Source of the DNA: Escherichia coli
GTDB lineage: Bacteria > Pseudomonadota > Gammaproteobacteria > Enterobacterales > Enterobacteriaceae
Assembly: GCF_003991155.1 (NCBI RefSeq)
Contig: NZ_CP031293.1
DNA: 64,000 nucleotides
Reading direction: 5' to 3' (one strand)
The translations under genes and the position numbers were made by a program. Of the stretch, positions 1-41,607 are shown piece after piece. A model generated the notes under the pieces. The model made no database searches. It was not told where the DNA came from and saw nothing but the letters and a program-made list of their open reading frames with translations. Positions within the stretch are counted from its first letter, which is position 1. Each line of letters starts with the position of its first letter.

Positions 1-360
<360 letters not shown>

Positions 361-1713
361 TTAATGTGCTTTTTTAAGCTCTGCGATGCAGTCGGCAAAA
401 TTTGGCAACCATTTCTCGTGCGCCAGAATCATCTCGCGTGCCAGCAGCTCAGCATCGCGATCGGAATGCACCAACGGACTAAGGTTTAGGGCCAGTAACA
501 CATCGTTAAACTCTCCGCTAAGTGCGGCGTTGCTGGCAGCAATCTCGAAGCCTTTAATGGTGTGAATCAGCCCCATCACTTTATCATCGAAATGCGTAAT
601 GCGCGGATGTGGCGTCGCGCCATCGCGCCCCAGCGTACAGGTCATTTCTACCGCCCAGTCTGCCGGAATATTATCAATATGCCCATGATGCGGGATATTA
701 ACGTAATGTTCAGCTTGCTTGTCGTTGTAGATAGCGTTGATCACTTCGCACGCTGCATCAGAGTAATAAGCCCCACCGCGCTGTTCCAGTTCTTTCGGCT
801 TAACTTTCAACTCCGGGTTTTTATATAGCTCAAAAAGTTGTTTCTCGACTTTCTGTACTACCTGCGCTCGTGCGCCGCCTTTGTAGTATTCGCCCATTTC
901 AATAGCCAGCATCTCTTTTTGCTTGAAGTAATAAAGCAAATAAGAACACGGCAACAGATTCAGAGAACGAATTAAGCCTTCGCTAAATGGCAGATCGAAA
1001 ATATTTTTAACGCCAGATGCTTTTAACTGCCCGGATGCCACACCATCAAGCAATTCGGCAAAGCGTGATTTGCCATTTACCAGCACATCTTTAATGAACA
1101 CCATATGGTTGAGGCCGAACAGATCGATAGATAAATCATCGCTGTCTTTCAGCATCAGAACATCGCGAATAAACATCTTCATGCCTATCGGAATATTACA
1201 CACGCCGATAAAGCGTTTAAATCCGGTATGACGATAAACGGCTTCAGTGACCATTCCCGCCGGGTTAGTGAAGTTAATCACCCATGCATTCGGACAAAGT
1301 TCTTCGACATCTTTTACGATGTCAAAAATCACCGGAATGGTACGCAGACCTTTAAACAGACCGCCCGCGCCGTTAGTTTCCTGACCAAGATAACCATGAC
1401 TTAATGGAATACGTTCATCCAGTTCGCGCGCCGGTAATTGGCCTACGCGCAGTTGGGTAGTAACGAAATCAGCATCTTTCAATGCTTCGCGGCGATCCAG
1501 CGTTTTATAAAGCTTCATCGGGACGCCAGCGTTATCAATCATCCGTTGGCAGAGATCAAAAATAATATCCAGTTTCTCTTTACCATCTTCGACATCCACC
1601 AGCCATAATTCGCTGACCGGCAATTCGTGATAACGCTTAATAAATCCTTCCAGTAACTCCGGGGTATAGCTGCTCCCGCCACCAATAGTGACGACTTTTA
1701 ATTTCTGGCTCAT
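361..1713 (-). CDS. chbF: 6-phospho-beta-glucosidase (GH4 family, NAD/Mn-dependent)
   Basis: 450-aa ORF, N-terminal KVVTIGGGSSYTPEL Rossmann motif typical of GH4; matches ChbF. Confidence 0.95.
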   Translation of the reverse strand: MSQKLKVVTIGGGSSYTPELLEGFIKRYHELPVSELWLVDVEDGKEKLDIIFDLCQRMIDNAGVPMKLYKTLDRREALKDADFVTTQLRVGQLPARELDERIPLSHGYLGQETNGAGGLFKGLRTIPVIFDIVKDVEELCPNAWVINFTNPAGMVTEAVYRHTGFKRFIGVCNIPIGMKMFIRDVLMLKDSDDLSIDLFGLNHMVFIKDVLVNGKSRFAELLDGVASGQLKASGVKNIFDLPFSEGLIRSLNLLPCSYLLYYFKQKEMLAIEMGEYYKGGARAQVVQKVEKQLFELYKNPELKVKPKELEQRGGAYYSDAACEVINAIYNDKQAEHYVNIPHHGHIDNIPADWAVEMTCTLGRDGATPHPRITHFDDKVMGLIHTIKGFEIAASNAALSGEFNDVLLALNLSPLVHSDRDAELLAREMILAHEKWLPNFADCIAELKKAH

Positions 1714-2140
1714 AATTTCTCCCTTCAGTACAGAATACTGATATCTGGCATATCTGCCCCCCCGGACATAAATAATCCAGCAACAGGACAGATATGTGAA
1801 TTGTCAGGTATAACGACTTACTGATTAAATTCAGTCAATTTCTTACGATAGCTCTTAGGCGTAAAGGACGTTAATTTCTTAAACGTTTTAATAAACAAAC
1901 TCGGGCTACTATAACCGGCCTCAAACGCAATATCCGTCACTGAATAGTTGGTCATTTCCAGTTGTTTTTTGGCAAAATTAATACGGATTTCATTAATAAT
2001 CTGCATTGGCGTTTTGCCATAATATCGTTGAGTCGCTCGCGTCAAATATTCCTGTGATTTGGCTGACAACGTCACCATATTCTCCAGCGCCGATTCACTA
2101 AACTGCTCTTTATCATGCATCTTTTCTACCGTACTTTTCA

Positions 2141-2149
2141 GCCACTGCG
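2141..2149. repeat. IS1 target-site duplication, left copy (GCCACTGCG)
   Basis: Identical 9-mer directly abuts both IS1 ends. Confidence 0.85.
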
Positions 2150-2204
2150 GGTGATGCTGCCAACTTACTGATTTAGTGTATGATGGTGTTTTTGAGGTGC
2201 TCCA

Positions 2205-2480
2205 GTGGCTTCTGTTTCTATCAGCTGTCCCTCCTGTTCAGCTACTGACGGAGTGGTGCGTAACGGCAAAAGCACCGCCGGACATCAGCGCTATCTCTGC
2301 TCTCATTGCCGTAAAACATGGCAACTGCAGTTCACTTACACCGCTTCTCAACCCGGTACGCACCAGAAAATCATTGATATGGCCATGAATGGCGTTGGAT
2401 GCCGGGCAACCGCCCGCATTATGGGCGTTGGCCTCAACACGATTTTCCGCCATTTAAAAAACTCAGGCCGCAGTCGGTAA
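2205..2480 (+). CDS. insA: IS1 InsA (transposition inhibitor / N-terminal part of InsAB' transposase)
   Basis: 91-aa [43 protein letters not shown]..., zinc-finger Cys pairs. Confidence 0.9.
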
Positions 2481-2902
2481 CCTCGCGCATACAGCCGGGC
2501 AGTGACGTCATCGTCTGCGCGGAAATGGACGAACAGTGGGGATACGTCGGGGCTAAATCGCGCCAGCGCTGGCTGTTTTACGCGTATGACAGGCTCCGGA
2601 AGACGGTTGTTGCGCACGTATTCGGTGAACGCACTATGGCGACGCTGGGGCGTCTTATGAGCCTGCTGTCACCCTTTGACGTGGTGATATGGATGACGGA
2701 TGGCTGGCCGCTGTATGAATCCCGCCTGAAGGGAAAGCTGCACGTAATCAGCAAGCGATATACGCAGCGAATTGAGCGGCATAACCTGAATCTGAGGCAG
2801 CACCTGGCACGGCTGGGACGGAAGTCGCTGTCGTTTTCAAAATCGGTGGAGCTGCATGACAAAGTCATCGGGCATTATCTGAACATAAAACACTATCAAT
2901 AA
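2399..2902 (+). CDS. insB: IS1 InsB reading frame (expressed as InsAB' fusion by -1 frameshift)
   Basis: 167-aa ORF in -1 frame relative to insA; coordinates are the open frame as given in the ORF track. Confidence 0.85.
2452..2461 (+). other. IS1 programmed -1 ribosomal frameshift motif (TTTAAAAAAC)
   Basis: A6C slippery run near the end of insA where the insB frame overlaps in -1. Confidence 0.7.
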
Positions 2903-2917
2903 GTTGGAGTCATTACC

Positions 2918-2926
2918 GCCACTGCG
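2918..2926. repeat. IS1 target-site duplication, right copy (GCCACTGCG)
   Basis: Identical to 2141..2149. Confidence 0.85.
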
Positions 2927-3444
2927 GTACATCATCAATCACCTGTTCTTCGCGGTAATGACGTAAACGGTTAATGACATAAAAAGTAACCATCTCAACA
3001 AACTCTTCCAGCCCTGTTTCGCGGAAATTCAATGAAGAAATCACTGTTTCCACATAGGTGAGAAAAGCGTTATTGGTCCGGTATACCTGCGAAGCTACAA
3101 AGCAATAAGGCAACAACGGCAGGTAATGCTGCTCAAAAAAGCGTTTACTGATCCCAACGTTCAATATGCGCGTGGCACCAAACTCATAAAAACTTTGATG
3201 GTGCGAACCTAACGGAATAAAAACAAAATCGCCCCGTTCCAGTAACACGCGCTTACCGTTAATCTCCTGGAAATAACGCCCGGTTAATACCAGAGTAAAT
3301 TCATAATAGTCGTGCTGATGCAGTCCGCTGATACTCTCAGTTTTGTTATAGATAAACACATGGAAATTTTTGCCATTAAACAACTGCTGTTCTCGGGCGG
3401 TGGCAATTTCCGGCGCGTTAATCACTGGCTGCATCATCGACTCC

Positions 3445-3795
3445 TTATGCCTTCAGTTTTTCATGAAGCTCAATTAATTCAGTAATCAGTTCACGCGCAA
3501 GCATGGACGTCATTAAATGATCCTGAGCGTGGACCAGCACCAGACTCACTTTCATCTTACCTTCGCCCGCATCGCCTTCAATCAGTTTCGTCTGTACCAG
3601 ATGCGCTTCATTCAATGCCATCCGTGACTGATCCATCATGGCTTTTGCTGCGGCAAAATCGCCCTGCTTCGCCTGTTTCAGTGCCGCATACGCCAGGCTG
3701 CGCGCTTGTCCGGAGTTGATGATAAGCCCCATCACCACTTCTTCCAGCTCTTCAGCTTCTGTTTGCGTATCGGGAATGTTATCGAGATCCATCAT
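3445..3795 (-). CDS. chbA: PTS chitobiose-specific EIIA component
   Basis: 116-aa ORF, lactose/cellobiose-family IIA; position between chbR and chbC. Confidence 0.9.
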
Positions 3796-3845
3796 ACATC
3801 GTTCCTCTCTTTTCTTACCGGCACGATTACCCGTACCGGCATCGA

Positions 3846-5204
3846 TTAAAATTTCAGGGCGTTAGCGATATCTTCTTCGCTCTCTTCTTTATCAATCGCG
3901 TTTTGTGCTTTGTTAGCGACCACAACAAAGGGCAGATAAATTAACGTTGCGATACCAAGGTTGAAGAGTGCAACCAGCAATGCGGCGACGCTACCGTTGG
4001 TGTTAAAGAAGGCTCCCAGACCGGTTGGCATGGTCCACGGTGCAATATTGGTCACCGGAGGAATAATGCCCATGTAGTACGCTGCCAGGGTGATTGCCGC
4101 CAGAATCGGTTGTACCAGTACAAACGGGATAAACATCACCGGGTTCATGATAATTGGCAGACCAAACAGAATCGGTTCGTTAATCTGGAAGATGCCGGAC
4201 GGCAGCGCCAGTTTTGCCACCTGACGATAATCAGCACGGCGAGAGGCGATAAAGATAGCCAGGATCAGACCTAAAGTCGCACCACTGCCCCCAAGGAAAA
4301 TAAAGGAGTCCAGCATCGGCTTGGCCCAGATATGGAAGGTCTTACCGGCTGCCAGCGCCGCTTCGACGGAACCATATTGCTGATAGGTCGCGATATTTTC
4401 CAGCGCCCACGGCGTCATAATGCCGTTGTCCAGTGCGGTCAGCGCCAGCGCACCATGAATACCGAAGAACCAGAGCAGTGGAACAAAGATCACATAGGCC
4501 CAGCCCACCACGCTACCCAACGATGCCAGTGGGGTTGAGATGGTATCCATAATGATCTGATGGAAGTTGGTGCCCCAGGTATTCAACGCCCAGGCAATAA
4601 TCCCCATCACGGAAAGAATAATAAAGCCGGGAATTAAAGCCGAGAAGGAACGCGATACTGAAGCAGGTACGCTATCGGGCAATTTAATGACCCAATTGCG
4701 GCGGACAATAAAGGTAAACATTTCTGCCACCACCAGGCCAATAATAATCCCGGAGATGATATTCGCCCCACCTAACCAGTTTGCGCCAACCGCATAGGCC
4801 TCACCGACACTATATGGGGTGACGGTCATAAATGCTGCAACGGATAACAACCCAGCCGCCAGCGCATCGACTTTACGCTCTTCTGCCAGCGCCATGCCAA
4901 TAAAGAACGGTGCCATTAAAGACATTATCCCTAATGTTCCGTTATATACGTTGCCGCCAATACCTTTCAGACCATTAAGTGTTTCAATGGTTGAGGCATC
5001 CAGGCGAATACCTAAGGAATAAAAAAACGACCCCTCCCCAAAGCTTAGAAAAACGTTGTTAATTAATACAAACATGGCCCCCGCAAGGGTTAACGGCATT
5101 AAGCGAATAAAGCCATTTTTGATTGCATTAACGTGTGGCTGCTTTCCTATTTTAACTGCAAAAGGGAGGAGTACCTTTTCAAGCGATGCAATAACATTAC
5201 TCAT
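3846..5204 (-). CDS. chbC: PTS chitobiose-specific EIIC permease
   Basis: 452-aa polytopic membrane protein, PTS EIIC lactose/cellobiose family. Confidence 0.9.
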
Positions 5205-5287
5205 AGAAAAATACCCTTAAAAACCGCAATTTAAATATTGCGGTATTGATTTATGAAATAACTCTTTGACGGGAAAATTTAAAAAAA

Positions 5288-5608
5288 TTAATTTGCTGCG
5301 GCTTTTTTAATCGCTGCAACCGCAGCCTTAAGCACGCCTAAACCATCGACTTTGCCATAAAGCAACGAGTCAATTACTTCAACCGGTTTGTTGGGTAACA
5401 AACGCTGGATTTCGGGCAACATATAAGCAATCTGCGGCCCTAATAACACGACATCGGCATTCTGACCTTTTTCACCAGCCAGTGTTTCCGGAAATGCTTC
5501 AATAATGACCGGAACTTCATATTTTTCTGCCTGTGCGCGCATTTTTGATACCAGTAAAGAGGTAGACATGCCCGCAGAACAAAACAGATAAATGTGTTTC
5601 TTTTCCAT
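5288..5608 (-). CDS. chbB: PTS chitobiose-specific EIIB component
   Basis: Start placed at internal Met ([20 protein letters not shown]...), phospho-Cys motif CSAGMSTS; ORF-track start 5647 is an upstream in-frame extension. Confidence 0.85.
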
Positions 5609-5790
5609 AAAACTGCCCTCATCGACGATTATCTGTAAGCCAGACACTCCGCAAGCCTTAACCTGCTTCCATGCTCTGGGTAACTTGCGAAACCAACATG
5701 ACTTTTTTTGTGGCTGAAAGGAGTATACGGTATAGACCTGAGCAATAGTATTTCTTTGACCTTATAAATTGTCTCTCCTTGACCTGCGGT

Positions 5791-5806
5791 TATGACCCTC
5801 TTCACA
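5791..5806 (-). promoter_or_regulatory. candidate CRP site in chb promoter region (TGTGAAGAGGGTCATA on minus strand)
   Basis: Matches TGTGA-N6-TCACA with one mismatch; the chb operon is known to be CRP-dependent; exact site not verified. Confidence 0.35.
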
Positions 5807-5848
5807 TTTCGGGCAAATAATTCGCGAAGATAATTAAGAACTCAGGCC

Positions 5849-5876
5849 AAAAAAAACCGGCGCAATGGCCGGTTTC
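5849..5876 (-). terminator. rho-independent terminator downstream of osmE (bidirectional hairpin ACCGGC-GCAATG-GCCGGT with flanking A/T runs)
   Basis: GC-rich stem followed by U-run on the minus-strand transcript. Confidence 0.6.
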
Positions 5877-5906
5877 CGTTGTAACTCAAGCTTTCAGGCG
5901 AAGTGA

Positions 5907-35394: not shown

Positions 35395-36753
35395 TTAATT
35401 CACCTCAGAAATCTCTTCCAGCGACACCTTCCGCGTTTCGATGCCAAAAATGGAGAGAACCAGCGCACAGAGCACTAACATGACACCAAGCACCATAAAC
35501 ACCGTGATTGACCCATAATGCGTTAATAGTGCCGCAACGCCATAGGGCGTGAAGACTGCGACGATCCGTCCGACGGCATTAACGAAACCCGAACCACGCA
35601 GGCGTAAATGCGTTGGCCAAAGTTCCGGGATATAAACCGCCGACGCGAAGCACACATACATGTATAAAAAGAAGATCATCACCAGGCCATAGATTAAAAT
35701 CGCCCACTCTGTAGTCTGAATTGAATAGATATAGCCTAACACAGCAATAATAATAAGTAAGGCAGAGCCAAATAATCGACGAGGAAAATGATCAATAATT
35801 AATGCCGCAATAAATATCCCTACCGGAGCGCCAATCATAATAACAGCGGTCATTAATATTGATTTATCAACATCAATGCCGGAGTTAACAAATATGGTCG
35901 GTATCCATACGGTGATGGTATAAAGCGAAATGTTCATTGCAATTAAAACAGTAATCGCGACTAATGTACGTCGTAACATTTCCCCTTTAAACAGGAGCCA
36001 GAAGGTACCCTTGATTACCTTAACCTTGCTGTTGCTCTGGTTCAAAGTAAGCGGGGGTAAACGAATACTCTTCTCTCTTTCAATTTGCTGCTCTACTTCA
36101 CGAAGTTGGCTTTCTGCACCTGCGATTTGCCCTTTCCCCGCCAACCATCGAGGCGACTCAATAAAGTATTTACCTGAGAGAAACCAGGCTAACAGTATGC
36201 CAATACCACCCAGCAGAAACATTATCCGCCAACTAAAAAAAGCGATAACCACCACGCCTATCGCCGCAGACAACATGGGCGACCAGTTACCGACAAATGA
36301 GAGCCGCGCGGACCATTTTCCACGCACCGTCGCGGGGATAAACTCCGTAAATGAGGCATAGCCAACCATAATCAGCGCCCCCATTCCTGTTCCCATCAGG
36401 AAGCGAAAGAAGATGAGCCAGTACATATCAGGGACAAAAGCGGCCCCTGTTGCCGCAATACCGACGATGAGAAGATTTATGCGAAACGCCCTGCGCCGCC
36501 CAAAGTAGTCACCAATAAACCCACCGGTAAGAGAGCCGATGAAATAACCAAACATTAATGCCGAGGTAAAGGCGGCATTGAGGAGATTATTTGACCATCC
36601 ATTGCTTACCAGCTTTGCTAAAACAACATTGCCTGAATAACTCAAAAAACCCGTTAATAACAGACTAAAGCTTATAATACCAAATATACGATAATGAAAC
36701 CGGGCCAAAGGCAAGCGGTCCAGTCTTGCGCCAATTTGATCATATTGTTCCAT
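35395..36753 (-). CDS. ydjE: MFS transporter
   Basis: 452-aa, about 12 TM helices, sugar-porter-like GR[RK] motifs. Confidence 0.8.
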   Translation of the reverse strand: MEQYDQIGARLDRLPLARFHYRIFGIISFSLLLTGFLSYSGNVVLAKLVSNGWSNNLLNAAFTSALMFGYFIGSLTGGFIGDYFGRRRAFRINLLIVGIAATGAAFVPDMYWLIFFRFLMGTGMGALIMVGYASFTEFIPATVRGKWSARLSFVGNWSPMLSAAIGVVVIAFFSWRIMFLLGGIGILLAWFLSGKYFIESPRWLAGKGQIAGAESQLREVEQQIEREKSIRLPPLTLNQSNSKVKVIKGTFWLLFKGEMLRRTLVAITVLIAMNISLYTITVWIPTIFVNSGIDVDKSILMTAVIMIGAPVGIFIAALIIDHFPRRLFGSALLIIIAVLGYIYSIQTTEWAILIYGLVMIFFLYMYVCFASAVYIPELWPTHLRLRGSGFVNAVGRIVAVFTPYGVAALLTHYGSITVFMVLGVMLVLCALVLSIFGIETRKVSLEEISEVN

Positions 36754-36869
36754 TAGGTGCCTCGGATTTGCTAAAAAGGTAGCAATTGCGGCAAATTCAC
36801 TTGCCGCATCTTTATCATCATTTTATTTCCAGGCGCAGGAACAAATAATATTGACAACGTGTGCTTAAA

Positions 36870-37628
36870 TTACCACACCAGCTGGATATTATTGTCTTTG
36901 CAAAATGCTATCCACTCTGCACCCGGTGATTTATCAGTTATTATGTAATTAATATGACTAAAGTCAGCTAACTGGACAAAAGCTTTGCGATCAAACTTAG
37001 AGTGATCAACCAATAACGCAACTTCTGTCGCCTGACGGATCATTGTCTTTTTGATTTCAGCTTCCGCTTCGTTAGAGTCCAGCGCGCCGCTGTTAATATC
37101 AAGACCTTTACAACTCATTACCATGATATCGACATGGTAGCGGCTGATGATCTCTTTAGTAATTCTTCCTTGCAGGGAAAGTGTATTTTTGTTTAGTTCC
37201 CCCCCCGTTGAAACGACTTTAATTTCTGACTGAGCCAGAACATGAATCGCTTCCGCCGAGTTGGTTAGCAACGTCAGGTCACTACGGTCCTGTAACAATT
37301 TGAGCAATTCCATTACGGTACTACTGGAATCGGCTGCCATGGTGGTTTTATTGTCGATAAAGGGTAGTGCCTTGCGTGCAATAAGCTGCTTCTCTTCATA
37401 AAACGATGAAGCGCGCTTATAAAAATGGATATTCTCCGTCAACATCGCTGTATTTAAAACAGCACCACCATAGGTTCTGGTCAAAAAGCCTTCATCTTCC
37501 AGCTTCTCAAGATCGCGGCGAATGGTTTCTTCGGTTACCTGAAAAATCCCACTCAAATTTGAGACTGTCACCTTTTTATCGTTGGCAACCATTTGCTTAA
37601 TTGCCTGAATCCTGTCTTTTGCCGCCAC
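36870..37628 (-). CDS. ydjF: DeoR-family transcriptional regulator
   Basis: 252-aa ORF, N-terminal HTH plus DeoR C-terminal sugar-phosphate sensor domain. Confidence 0.8.
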   Translation of the reverse strand: MAAKDRIQAIKQMVANDKKVTVSNLSGIFQVTEETIRRDLEKLEDEGFLTRTYGGAVLNTAMLTENIHFYKRASSFYEEKQLIARKALPFIDNKTTMAADSSSTVMELLKLLQDRSDLTLLTNSAEAIHVLAQSEIKVVSTGGELNKNTLSLQGRITKEIISRYHVDIMVMSCKGLDINSGALDSNEAEAEIKKTMIRQATEVALLVDHSKFDRKAFVQLADFSHINYIITDKSPGAEWIAFCKDNNIQLVW

Positions 37629-37764
37629 GATTACACCCCTGTATCTTTTTACATCACATTAGCGCGATTATCGCATAACCGATGTTTACTTTCAAAATAA
37701 CCTGTTTGAATCACAGATTTTCATCACAGTTTTCACAGAAACAGAGGTGAATCGTGTTGAGTAT

Positions 37765-38745
37765 TTAACGCTCCAGGGCCTCTGCCATTTCCCTCATCAA
37801 TGTTGCGTCTGCATCCGATAAGTTGATATTCAATGCCGCGACATTTTCGCGTACCTGTTCCGGTGCAGTAGCCCCACTAAGAATGGAGATTAAATCACTC
37901 TGTTTTAATATCCACGCCAGTGCCAGAGTGGGAATTGTGCACTGATAACGAGCACAGAGTGGCTGCCACTGTTCAAGCATATCAATCACTTTCAGCATGT
38001 TTTCACGCTGGAACCAGACTTTATTTGCCCGAGCGCCACCCGGAACGTAATCACGAGTGATGGTACCGGTCAACAATCCCTGCTCTAGCGGGGAATAAAC
38101 CTGTACCACAATGCCATTATCACGACATAGCGGCAGCAGTTCGCTTTCCAATGCCCGGTCGAGGATACTGTATTTCGCCTGAATAATATCCAGTTCACCA
38201 TATTGCAGATACTCGCGGATATGGTCAGCATCGACGTTAGCAGCGCCTATAGCGCGAATTTTTCCTTCGGCCTTTAACTCATTGAGCACTGCGACAGTTT
38301 CAGCTATCGGCGTAAAAAATGGCGGCACCGACTGCCAGTGCGTCATGTAGATATCGATGTAATCAATACCCAGACGTTGCAAGCTGGCTTCTACCTCTTC
38401 GCGGATAGATTCCGGGGAAAGGTTTTTATACAACTGCCGATCGCCAACTTTGTTGAATAAACTCCCTTTTCGTTCCCAGACAATGCCGCATTTGGTTTCT
38501 ACTACAACCTGTTCACGGGGCAGTTTTTTTAACGCCTGACCGACGATAACTTCACTATTGCCAAAGTTATATCCTGGCGCAGTATCAATCAGATTAATGC
38601 CACAACGATGGGCTTCAAGAATCGTATCAATACATATTTGCCGATCGAGATCGCCATTCCATGCAGGACCGCCGCCAATGGCCCATGTCCCCAACCCCAT
38701 TCGCGAAAGCGTAATATCCGTTGTGCCTAAAGGTATCTTTTTCAT
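37765..38745 (-). CDS. ydjG: aldo-keto reductase
   Basis: 326-aa AKR-family ORF. Confidence 0.8.
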   Translation of the reverse strand: MKKIPLGTTDITLSRMGLGTWAIGGGPAWNGDLDRQICIDTILEAHRCGINLIDTAPGYNFGNSEVIVGQALKKLPREQVVVETKCGIVWERKGSLFNKVGDRQLYKNLSPESIREEVEASLQRLGIDYIDIYMTHWQSVPPFFTPIAETVAVLNELKAEGKIRAIGAANVDADHIREYLQYGELDIIQAKYSILDRALESELLPLCRDNGIVVQVYSPLEQGLLTGTITRDYVPGGARANKVWFQRENMLKVIDMLEQWQPLCARYQCTIPTLALAWILKQSDLISILSGATAPEQVRENVAALNINLSDADATLMREMAEALER

Positions 38746-38754
38746 TTGCCTTCA

Positions 38755-39702
38755 TTATCCTTCGTATTCTTCCAGCAATTGTTCGACCAGCTTTCTGTTT
38801 TTTACGCCGGTGGTGGCACCGACGCTTAGAACCGAGATAGCCGCCGTTGCATTGGCAAAGCGTGCGCATTCACGCAGATTTTTGCCTTCTAACAGTGCCG
38901 CAATAAAACCTGAAGCAAAGTTATCGCCCGCGCCAATGGTGTCGATGGCGGTTATTCCTGCGACCGCCGGCACCTTCATCGTCATGTCACCACGCTTGAT
39001 AAAGCAGCCGTCTTTACCCGTTTTAATCACCACCGTTTTTACGCCGCACGCAAGAAAGCAGTCAGCAATTTCATCCAGTGTCTCTTTCCCGGTGAGTAAT
39101 TTTGCCTCGGCAAAATTAGGAAACAGATAATCGACATAACTCAATGCTTCGCAAATATCATCCAGCGTTTCATTCAACCGCGGTTTGATCATATCGGCAC
39201 AGATAATCATCTGCCGGGCTTTAGCTTGCGTAAAAATTTCTGTTAGCGCTTTACCATCCAATAGTGGACTGTTGAAAATACTGGCCAGTGATAATAATTT
39301 CGCCTGGGAAAACCGCGCAAAATCAACATCGTCAATATTCAATTTCCACAGACTGCCGTTACGGTTTGTGACAAACGTCCGCTCGCCATCCTCCGTCACC
39401 AGTCCAACGTTAATAGAGGTATCTATGTTGACGTCCTGCTTCAGGCTTTGAATATCAATATTCTCTTTGCGGCAATGGTCGAGAATAAATTGCCCGGCGG
39501 CATCTTTACCAATACGACTCATTAATGCTGTGCGATGGCCCAGACGAGAAATAATTGTTGCTTCATTTATTGCATCACCCCCGGTGGTCATTGCGATTCT
39601 TTCAAGAGGATAAGAATCCACATCAAAGATATTTTTACTGACCGGTTGCAATGGAATATCAACAATAGCGGCACCTATACAAATAACGTCGAGATTATCC
39701 AT
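38755..39702 (-). CDS. ydjH: PfkB/ribokinase-family sugar kinase
   Basis: Start at MDNLDVICIGAAIVD; GAGDNF motif near C-terminus; 315 aa. Confidence 0.8.
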   Translation of the reverse strand: MDNLDVICIGAAIVDIPLQPVSKNIFDVDSYPLERIAMTTGGDAINEATIISRLGHRTALMSRIGKDAAGQFILDHCRKENIDIQSLKQDVNIDTSINVGLVTEDGERTFVTNRNGSLWKLNIDDVDFARFSQAKLLSLASIFNSPLLDGKALTEIFTQAKARQMIICADMIKPRLNETLDDICEALSYVDYLFPNFAEAKLLTGKETLDEIADCFLACGVKTVVIKTGKDGCFIKRGDMTMKVPAVAGITAIDTIGAGDNFASGFIAALLEGKNLRECARFANATAAISVLSVGATTGVKNRKLVEQLLEEYEG

Positions 39703-39706
39703 ATCA

Positions 39707-40543
39707 TTATTCCGCTTTGCCATCAGAACCGAACAGTTTAATTTTTTCCAATGCCCGTTCTTTTACAGCTTTACGTACTTCACGTTCTAAATGCAGGAAA
39801 GGCTGATCCTGGTTTTCTTTCACTGCTACCATTGCGGCCTGACAGAGCTCCGTATGAATGTTGATTTTCGCAATACCCAACGAAATTGCAGTTTTAATGT
39901 CGGCATCACTGATCCCCGATGCGCCGTGCAAAACCAGCGGAACAGAAACAGCATCGCGTACGCCTTTGACGACCTCAAAGTTCAATTGTGGCTCTGACGT
40001 ATAAACCCCATGCTGGTTGCCGATGGCGACAGCCAATGAGTCACAGCCCGTACGTTCAACAAATTCAGCCGCCTGGTCAGGATCGGTATAGTGATAGCCC
40101 GCCAGCGCTTCCTCATAAACGGTTTCATTACCGACATGCCCTAATTCCGCCTCTACCGGAATACCCAGCGGATGGAAGAAATCAACAGCCTCTTTGGTTA
40201 AACGAATATTTTCTTCGAAATCAAATGCGGAAGCATCACGCATTAATGAATTCATACCATGAGTCCAGGCGTTATGAATAATTTCCATACTCCGACCATG
40301 ATCCCAATGAGTTATTACCGGCACCGTTGCTTTTTTTGCCATTGATACCATCATGTGAGAGAAATCTTCAAATGAGGTGTTCCCGACAAAACCTGTACCA
40401 AAAGAAATAATAACCGGTGATTTCGCTTCTTCGGCTGCGTCGATAACGCCCATCAACATTTCTGCATTCCATACGTTAAAATGGGCAATTGCATAATGTT
40501 TATTTGTGGCATCGTTTTCCCAATATCTGATATCTGCGAGCAT
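39707..40543 (-). CDS. ydjI: class II (metal-dependent) aldolase, FBA/tagatose-bisphosphate aldolase-like
   Basis: 278-aa ORF. Confidence 0.8.
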   Translation of the reverse strand: MLADIRYWENDATNKHYAIAHFNVWNAEMLMGVIDAAEEAKSPVIISFGTGFVGNTSFEDFSHMMVSMAKKATVPVITHWDHGRSMEIIHNAWTHGMNSLMRDASAFDFEENIRLTKEAVDFFHPLGIPVEAELGHVGNETVYEEALAGYHYTDPDQAAEFVERTGCDSLAVAIGNQHGVYTSEPQLNFEVVKGVRDAVSVPLVLHGASGISDADIKTAISLGIAKINIHTELCQAAMVAVKENQDQPFLHLEREVRKAVKERALEKIKLFGSDGKAE

Positions 40544-40563
40544 ATTCTGTTCTCCCGTATTAA

Positions 40564-41607
40564 TTAATCGCTAATTTTAATAACGCCTTTAATAATGTCG
40601 CGTTTGTTGTTAACCGACTCTTCAAATGCCTGTTGTACATCCTGATAATCGTAAATATGTGTCACCATCGATTTCACATCTAATCGCCCTGAGGAAATAG
40701 CTTCAATCGTGACCGGATAACGATTGGCATAGCGGAATACTGTCTGGATAGTGACTTCGCGATTGATTTTGAGGAAATTGATTGCCGAATCGCCCGGTAC
40801 AGTACCAACAATCATAATTTTACCGCCGCGCATTACCAGATAAGGTGCCTGTTTAACGGTGACCGCAGAACCCGCTGTTTCGAAAACAATATCTGCGCCC
40901 ATTTCTTCGGTAAATTGCTGACAGCGTGCAATAGTGTCTTCTTTTGCGCCGTTAATAACCACTGTCGCGCCGAGCTGTTCCGCCATTGTCAGACGTTTTT
41001 CCAGCACATCAACGACGGCAATATCCGTAGCTCCCAGGCATTTGCACGCTTGCAACGTCATCAAACCAATACAACCCGCTCCCAGAATAATTATCTTCTT
41101 ACCCGGTTTAACATCTGCCAGCATCGCGGCATGCATCCCGACTGCGGCAGGCTCCACCAGCGCCCCTTCCATCGTGTCCATATTGTCGGGCAGTTTGTAA
41201 GTAAAGCTCTCCGGATGACACAGATAGTGCGTTAATGCGCCGCGGTAGTTAGGTTGTGTCGCCATAAAATCAACGTCCGGGCAGATGTTATATTTGCCTT
41301 CCAGACAGTAACGACAGTGACCGCAAGGAACGCCAGGTTCGATATTTACCCGATCCCCCGCTTTAAATTTGCGCACACGGCTTCCCACAGCCACAACCGT
41401 CCCGGCGCATTCATGACCCAGGCCAATTTCTTGATTTGGGTCTTTAGGCGGAATAAACGGGCCTGATTCGAAACCATGTACATCTGAACCACAAATACCG
41501 ACATATTCCACTTTAATCAAAACTTCATCTTCTTTAGGCACAGGTATTTCTGCTGAAATAATTTTCATTGTGCCCGGCACCTGCAATATTGCTTTTGAAT
41601 TTTTCAT
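40564..41607 (-). CDS. ydjJ: Zn-dependent alcohol/polyol dehydrogenase (MDR family)
   Basis: 347-aa ORF; GHECAG zinc motif and GAGCIG Rossmann motif. Confidence 0.8.
   Translation of the reverse strand: MKNSKAILQVPGTMKIISAEIPVPKEDEVLIKVEYVGICGSDVHGFESGPFIPPKDPNQEIGLGHECAGTVVAVGSRVRKFKAGDRVNIEPGVPCGHCRYCLEGKYNICPDVDFMATQPNYRGALTHYLCHPESFTYKLPDNMDTMEGALVEPAAVGMHAAMLADVKPGKKIIILGAGCIGLMTLQACKCLGATDIAVVDVLEKRLTMAEQLGATVVINGAKEDTIARCQQFTEEMGADIVFETAGSAVTVKQAPYLVMRGGKIMIVGTVPGDSAINFLKINREVTIQTVFRYANRYPVTIEAISSGRLDVKSMVTHIYDYQDVQQAFEESVNNKRDIIKGVIKISD

Follow-up and report, generated by a model that had tools for sequence, protein, structure and literature searches.

An IS1 insertion with a 9-bp target duplication interrupts chbR, the regulator gene of the chitobiose operon, in an Escherichia coli lineage

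A complete IS1 element flanked by a perfect 9-bp target duplication interrupts chbR within the chbBCARFG operon, and the resulting allele is, as far as its sequence predicts, most likely null and probably polar. As a knockout of an accessory regulator by IS1 it is ordinary and already annotated, and many other E. coli strains show the same kind. The evidence comes from reconstruction of the interrupted gene, from the anatomy of the element and from the same and other chbR::IS1 alleles in complete E. coli genomes.

RESULTS

A complete IS1 splits chbR between chbA and chbF

The window, i.e. the whole 64,000-nucleotide stretch of E. coli DNA that was analysed, carries genes in the order chbG'-chbF-chbR-chbA-chbC-chbB-osmE-nadE-cho-ves-spy-ast...-dmlR, and chbR occupies the position of a ChbR gene, namely between chbA and chbF inside chbBCARFG (Table 1). 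Deletion of 2150..2926 fused the minus-strand segments 1818..2149 and 2927..3437 into an 843-bp ORF of 280 aa, and the reconstructed protein scored 585 bits against the ChbR equivalog NF007633 (cut-off 264), aligned over residues 1-280 of 280 and differed from K-12 ChbR (b1735) solely by A197T. The initial annotation had claimed that the flanking minus-strand ORFs are one reading frame after excision, and with a single full-length ORF restored this claim withstood the check that had been set to refute it. As the DNA stands, no single polypeptide joins the sensor to the two-HTH DNA-binding domain, the frame being split after codon 173: the upstream fragment ends in ...D-D-V-P-Q-W, followed by an Arg and then by a stop codon from the right end of IS1, which agrees with the break after about residue 173 noted earlier. 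Judged from its sequence, chbR in its present form is a pseudogene.

Table 1. Features at and around the insertion, in window coordinates
Feature	Coordinates	Strand	Remarks
chbG (chitooligosaccharide deacetylase), 5′ part	1..348	-	Cut by the window edge; downstream of the insertion
chbF (6-phospho-beta-glucosidase), intact	361..1713	-	Downstream of the insertion, polarity-exposed
chbR 3′ fragment	1818..2149	-	Codons about 171-280, both HTH motifs; only in-frame start ATG 2120 (M181), giving 100 aa
Target-site duplication, left copy, 9 bp, GCCACTGCG	2141..2149		Abuts the IS1 left end
Complete IS1 (IS1B-like)	2150..2917	+	768 bp; orientation opposite to chbR; NF033558 matches and PGAP name
IS1 left terminal inverted repeat (IRL), GGTGATGCTGCCAACTTACTGAT	2150..2172	+	First 23 bases of the element
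insA, 91 aa	2205..2480	+	ORF; NF033558 model positions 1-81; zinc-binding domain IS1/IS1595 NF050000
insB' reading frame	2399..2902	+	NF033558 model positions 76-199
A6C programmed -1 frameshift motif, AAAAAAC	2456..2462	+	Read from the sequence; within the insA/insB' overlap 2399-2480
IS1 right terminal inverted repeat (IRR), GGTAATGACTCCAACTTATTGAT read on the minus strand	2895..2917	-	Last 23 bases, reverse complement
chbR 5′ fragment	2913..3437	-	ChbR 1-173 (cupin / AraC-type sensor domain) plus Arg; stop supplied by IRR
Target-site duplication, right copy, 9 bp, GCCACTGCG	2918..2926		Abuts the IS1 right end
chbA, chbC, chbB (PTS components), intact	3445..5608	-	Proteins identical to K-12
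ChiX-complementary 12-mer CCCGUCAAAGAG, sRNA decoy site, intact	5262..5273	-	chbB-chbC intergenic; compared with K-12 chiX

The element was described at the outset as a complete 768-bp IS1 with both terminal repeats, insA, insB and an A6C motif, and each of these features was located and the transposase models were matched. Its 23-bp terminal inverted repeats are imperfect, with IRL and IRR of the IS1 at 2150..2917 matching at 18 of 23 positions. Against the NCBIfam model NF033558 ('IS1 family transposase'), InsA aligned with E = 1.8e-25 and InsB' with E = 6.4e-42, and the InsAB' transposase made via the -1 frameshift (2205..2902) has coordinates equal to those of the joined CDS of PGAP, WP_095033700.1, which is named 'IS1-like element IS1B family transposase' and annotated with a programmed frameshift. 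A length of ~768 bp, repeats of ~23 bp, overlapping insA/insB', the A6C motif and the 9-bp duplication are thus all those of an IS1. Every sequence feature of the element is intact.

The target-site duplication of IS1 is usually 9 bp and occasionally 8 bp. Here the 64-kb window contains just two occurrences of GCCACTGCG, both perfect copies, one at each IS1 end, and a specified 9-mer would recur at a specified position by chance with a probability of ~4e-6. The homologous position of K-12 holds a single empty copy of GCCACTGCG and no insertion. The identical 9-bp repeats said to flank the element are therefore present as described, at 2141-2149 and 2918-2926.

The break maps near the start of the DNA-binding domain

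Pfam placed Cupin_2 at residues 28-81 and AraC_binding at 38-81 of ChbR, HTH_AraC at 190-223 and 234-273, and HTH_18 at 202-273, so that at Pfam resolution the break after W173 lies between domains and upstream of both HTH motifs. A single-sequence AlphaFold2 model, meant for the domain boundary, was unusable (mean pLDDT 44.5), and the boundary was instead taken from HMM alignments and crystallised constructs. SoxS 4-107 aligned with ChbR 164-275, RamA 4-106 with 164-274, Rob 4-104 with 166-274 and AraC 181-288 with 163-278, while the crystallised domain-only constructs 3lsg, 3oou, 3oio and 6swi put the domain start near ChbR 167-170. By these alignments the AraC/MarA-type DNA-binding domain starts at about ChbR 164-170 and is longer than the Pfam HTH matches; because of this start, the break falls a few residues inside its first helix. 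The earlier placement of the break between the sensor and DNA-binding domains thus holds with respect to the two HTHs, which are both downstream, and needs shifting with respect to the domain boundary itself.

Chitobiose induction of the chb operon is predicted to be lost

ChbR is described in PMC3551598 and PMC4098024, which each refer to Plumbridge & Pellegrini 2004, as the chitobiose-dependent activator of chbBCARFG, and as a dual regulator which represses the operon together with NagC in the absence of the sugar and is needed for activation by chitobiose. The induced chb mRNA is in addition a decoy that titrates the small RNA ChiX and so relieves chiP (PMC4098024).

In the mechanism proposed here, IS1 would have transposed into chbR in the orientation opposite to the operon, generating the usual 9-bp target duplication, and would have left an upstream piece with the sensor/dimerisation domain only and a downstream piece lacking a promoter, a ribosome-binding site and the first helix. 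Because neither fragment can both sense sugar and bind DNA, the allele should be null and induction lost, i.e. functional ChbR would not be made and the chb operon would no longer be chitobiose-inducible. Transcription of chb would have to cross 768 bp of untranslated IS1, and chbF and chbG would probably be under-expressed via polarity. Without induced chb mRNA, ChiX would not be titrated, and the chitoporin gene chiP would stay silenced. The expected net phenotype would be no growth on chitobiose. IS1 insertions are classically polar on distal operon genes, and it is by this analogy that polarity on chbF and chbG is considered probable. ChbR is a repressor too, and in the null allele the basal level of chbBCA, limited by NagC, might therefore increase somewhat, instead of the operon being plainly silenced.

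The initial annotation had likewise expected ChbR-dependent induction of chbBCARFG to be lost, in agreement with the published role of ChbR (PMC3551598, PMC4098024); polarity on chbF/chbG and the ChiX-decoy role of the chb mRNA are additions to that reading. The regulatory and growth phenotypes we infer from published K-12 work, the DNA structure and the gene identities being read from the window itself. Taken as a whole, the IS1 knockout explanation, with its null chbR, lost induction, polarity on chbFG, silenced chiP and absence of growth on chitobiose, is held with high confidence.

Several features of the surrounding operon were recorded beside the insertion. The chbB-chbC spacer is 83 nt in this lineage versus 84 nt in K-12 (window about 5281-5287), where AAAATAAA is replaced by AAAAAAA directly after the chbB stop, ~10 nt from the unchanged ChiX pairing site. 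Differences from K-12 are far denser in chbG/chbF, with 52 of 83 located before position 1600 and six amino-acid changes in ChbF, than from chbR through chbB, where each protein departs from its K-12 counterpart by at most one residue; this density pattern points to a recombination boundary close to where chbF adjoins chbR. A promoter-like match, TTCACA-N17-GATTAT (1800->1772, minus strand), is present in the chbR-chbF spacer upstream of chbF and might give some ChbR-independent transcription of chbFG; in the promoter scan, such matches around 1800->1772 were no more frequent than in shuffled sequence. An Rfam scan of the whole 64-kb window returned no family at the gathering score.

IS1 insertions recur in chbR with no meaningful excess over a control operon

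Among 5,426 complete E. coli genomes, about 30 have an IS1 within chbR, and mapping of the junctions distinguished 13 or more insertion sites. The element occurs in either orientation, and at least 17 of the insertions are independent. Counted from the stop-codon end of the 843-bp gene, the site in the window (GCCACTGCG, 324-332) is occupied only in this lineage. The other natural chbR::IS1 alleles likewise interrupt the gene by IS1 and differ from it in the insertion site, being found at 29-37, 167-175, 191-199, 301-309, 428-436, 500-508, 603-611, 634-642, 651-659, 757-765, 761-769 and 769-776.

Two of these sites were used repeatedly. At CGGATTTCA (chbR 167-175, window about 1984-1992), at least four independent events in both orientations were recognised, namely in PCP06101, 210221272, 09A22CPO026/strain 410 (with an 8-bp duplication) and H1 (in the reverse orientation), and they carry different IS1 variants (1-26 differences), different flanking alleles and different chromosomal backgrounds. 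At CATCTTTTC (chbR 301-309, window about 2118-2126), which lies 23 bp from the site in the window, at least three independent events were counted on three chromosomal backgrounds, with IS1 variants 98.7%, 97.3% and 93.6% identical to that of the window and all in the orientation opposite to it. Reuse of the window's own site in the opposite orientation had been considered, on account of single-piece matches to a synthetic query with IS1 reversed, for cM2a, L6-21, CAVP888, 50EVAW and QDFD216, and was rejected after inspection of cM2a, CAVP888 and 50EVAW, whose insertions are 23 bp away at CATCTTTTC. An apparent orientation bias was rejected as well: the first search gave 19 genomes with IS1 in or adjoining chbR, all in the window's orientation, which was an artefact of strand-wise joining of the matched pieces, and the query with IS1 reversed yielded 17 more genomes, a similar number.

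Rearrangements associated with IS1 were also observed at the locus. TO6 has an IS1-associated deletion in which the stretch from chbR position 191 into chbF is lost, its right junction being common to the 65COLEC insertion; in ES4 there are two copies of IS1 and a truncated chbF, beyond which ydjM and tcyP are found in place of chbG and katE; and in the MEI strains chbR is apparently joined to chbB by an IS1-associated deletion. Elsewhere in the operon, chbC and chbF are also split by IS1, in clonal groups.

The GC content of chbR is 41.4% versus 49.7% for the window, and IS1 is reported to prefer A/T-rich targets (PMC9330008, citing Zerbib 1985). Whether chb is a hot locus for IS1 was judged with a query made of the IS-free region (5,123 bp, window 1-5900) plus IS1 in both orientations, and with an equally long, GC-matched control, the ydjE-ydjJ sugar operon (window 36000-41122). 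IS1 was found in or within about 3.8 kb of chb in 117 of 5,426 complete E. coli genomes and in or near the control in 95 of 5,426, these counts being of genomes and not of phylogenetically independent events. This is no meaningful excess, and chb as an IS1 hot locus was therefore rejected. Erosion of AT-rich accessory sugar operons by IS1 looks general.

These data bear on a rival account of why the allele persists, in which selection favoured the loss of function, since silenced chitobiose uptake or release from ChbR-mediated regulation would benefit this lineage in its host-associated niche; the account concerns persistence and is compatible with the knockout mechanism. It draws on the 17 or more independent chbR insertions, on the finding of the allele in three countries and two host species, and on a published survey of 60,472 E. 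coli in which chbR is listed with the sugar-metabolism regulators whose GLASS-P score is negative, which denotes an excess of deleterious polymorphisms (PMC10401003). The nearly equal control count, however, shows no locus-specific excess; that a few sites are hit again and again is more in keeping with the target preference of IS1 than with selection, and the intact state of the remaining operon points to a recent event. We thus regard selection as possible but unlikely. Considerably less probable is the wider proposal that chbR is a recurrent selected off-switch in host-associated E. coli or, less likely within it, that the orphan HTH fragment is active. If the off-switch reading were true, the hot spots CGGATTTCA and CATCTTTTC and their neighbours would supply loss-of-function alleles at a high rate, and these alleles would lock the chb operon, and via ChiX the chitoporin, off. 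As matters stand, the repeated chbR insertions together with the excess of deleterious polymorphisms are mildly interesting for regulator loss in E. coli, with the control showing no locus specificity.

The downstream HTH fragment is very unlikely to be an active regulator

In AraC, RhaS and XylS, the C-terminal domain on its own is capable of activating transcription. The initial annotation had accordingly raised a free HTH fragment, made from ATG 2120 or from IS1 read-out, and the rival explanation built on it is that M181-Q280 is expressed from a hybrid or outward IS1 promoter and acts as a ligand-independent activator or repressor at the chb promoter. The ORF 1818..2120 is indeed open, starts with ATG and keeps both Pfam HTH motifs, and the left end of IS1 carries an outward TTGGCA, a -35-like hexamer (2163->2158, minus strand). 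Fusion promoters of IS1 are documented (PMC9330008, citing Prentki 1986), and weak read-out is conceivable.

Against this, the promoter scan found no sigma-70-like promoter on the minus strand between 2120 and 2917, a consensus scan being liable to miss weak promoters. The best hybrid candidate, TTGGCA-N17-TGAAAA, matches the -10 hexamer at three of six positions and lacks the key A2 and T6. ATG 2120 is the only in-frame start after the last IS1 stop, and the Shine-Dalgarno ahead of it is weak (GGTAGAAAAG); the 100-aa fragment thus has, by the scan and by this Shine-Dalgarno, neither a promoter nor a good ribosome-binding site of its own. Its start at residue 181 is 11-17 residues inside the canonical DNA-binding domain, so the first helix is missing, and as a stand-alone AraC/MarA-type domain it falls short of the complete ~100-108 aa form that includes this helix. 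The fragment claim was not upheld by these results, and an active fragment is very unlikely; the null allele of the IS1 knockout explanation is preferred.

The same allele is present in three other complete genomes

The identical chbR::IS1 allele was found in three RefSeq complete genomes, EC0585 (NZ_CP195049; human, China), CUVET16-465 (NZ_CP150994; cat, Thailand) and CREC-544 (NZ_CP024826; human, Korea), which were independently assembled and have junctions 100% identical over 1,620 bp. They share with the window the insertion point, orientation, duplication and IS1 sequence, and nothing differs at the insertion itself. A comparison with EC0585 over 9.4 kb showed no difference from the window, and one with CUVET16-465 over the full 64 kb showed differences at only three places. 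The PGAP annotation of all three genomes treats chbR as a pseudogene in two partial CDSs and names a transposase of the IS1B family. The allele is thus real, clonal in one lineage and already recorded in RefSeq; a literature search for chbR together with IS1 found nothing relevant. An assembly artefact at the IS1 junctions (a collapsed repeat or misjoin), the other condition under which the initial reading would have failed, has a negligible probability, for although IS elements commonly cause misassembly in short-read drafts, a perfect 9-bp direct repeat sits exactly at both element ends and the junctions are identical in three separately sequenced complete genomes.

Private changes in chb were observed in two of these genomes. 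In CREC-544, a C5->C4 change in the run at window 4292-4296 frameshifts chbC and could be a sequencing error, and CUVET16-465 has G45C in ChbB (window 5476). Such changes might mark the onset of decay once the regulator was lost, the few cases amounting to an anecdote. The lineage of EC0585, CUVET16-465 and CREC-544 has only two chromosomal IS1-matching places, versus a median of 11 per genome, so that the chbR insertion accounts for one of the very few IS1 copies on its chromosome. A plasmid may have supplied the donor copy.

DISCUSSION

The insertion has little importance beyond strain annotation; it is a clean case, probably of recent date, of an accessory sugar regulon decaying through an IS. 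For the lineage of EC0585, CUVET16-465 and CREC-544 it predicts a chitobiose-nonusing phenotype, which bears on metabolic modelling and on phenotype prediction for clinical and veterinary isolates.

Compared with known systems, the insertion resembles the classical IS1 mutations of gal and lac, in which likewise a 768-bp element with a 9-bp duplication disrupts an operon gene; polarity would be expected here by analogy with them, and only the target gene differs. The cel/chb operon itself is known from insertions of another kind. Those that activate cellobiose use are located in nagC or ahead of the chb promoter, and are combined with point mutations that give ChbR a gain of function. Parker & Hall (1990) and Kachroo et al. 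(2007) reportedly described how IS elements activate the cryptic cel/chb operon and so permit use of cellobiose, and a general statement that insertion sequences activate this cryptic operon is given in PMC4488073. The operon is the same as in the window, and so is the mutagen, namely insertion sequences including IS1. Unlike the cellobiose-activating insertions, the IS1 of the window lies inside chbR and destroys the gene, and because of this, activation of cellobiose use is not expected in the lineage.
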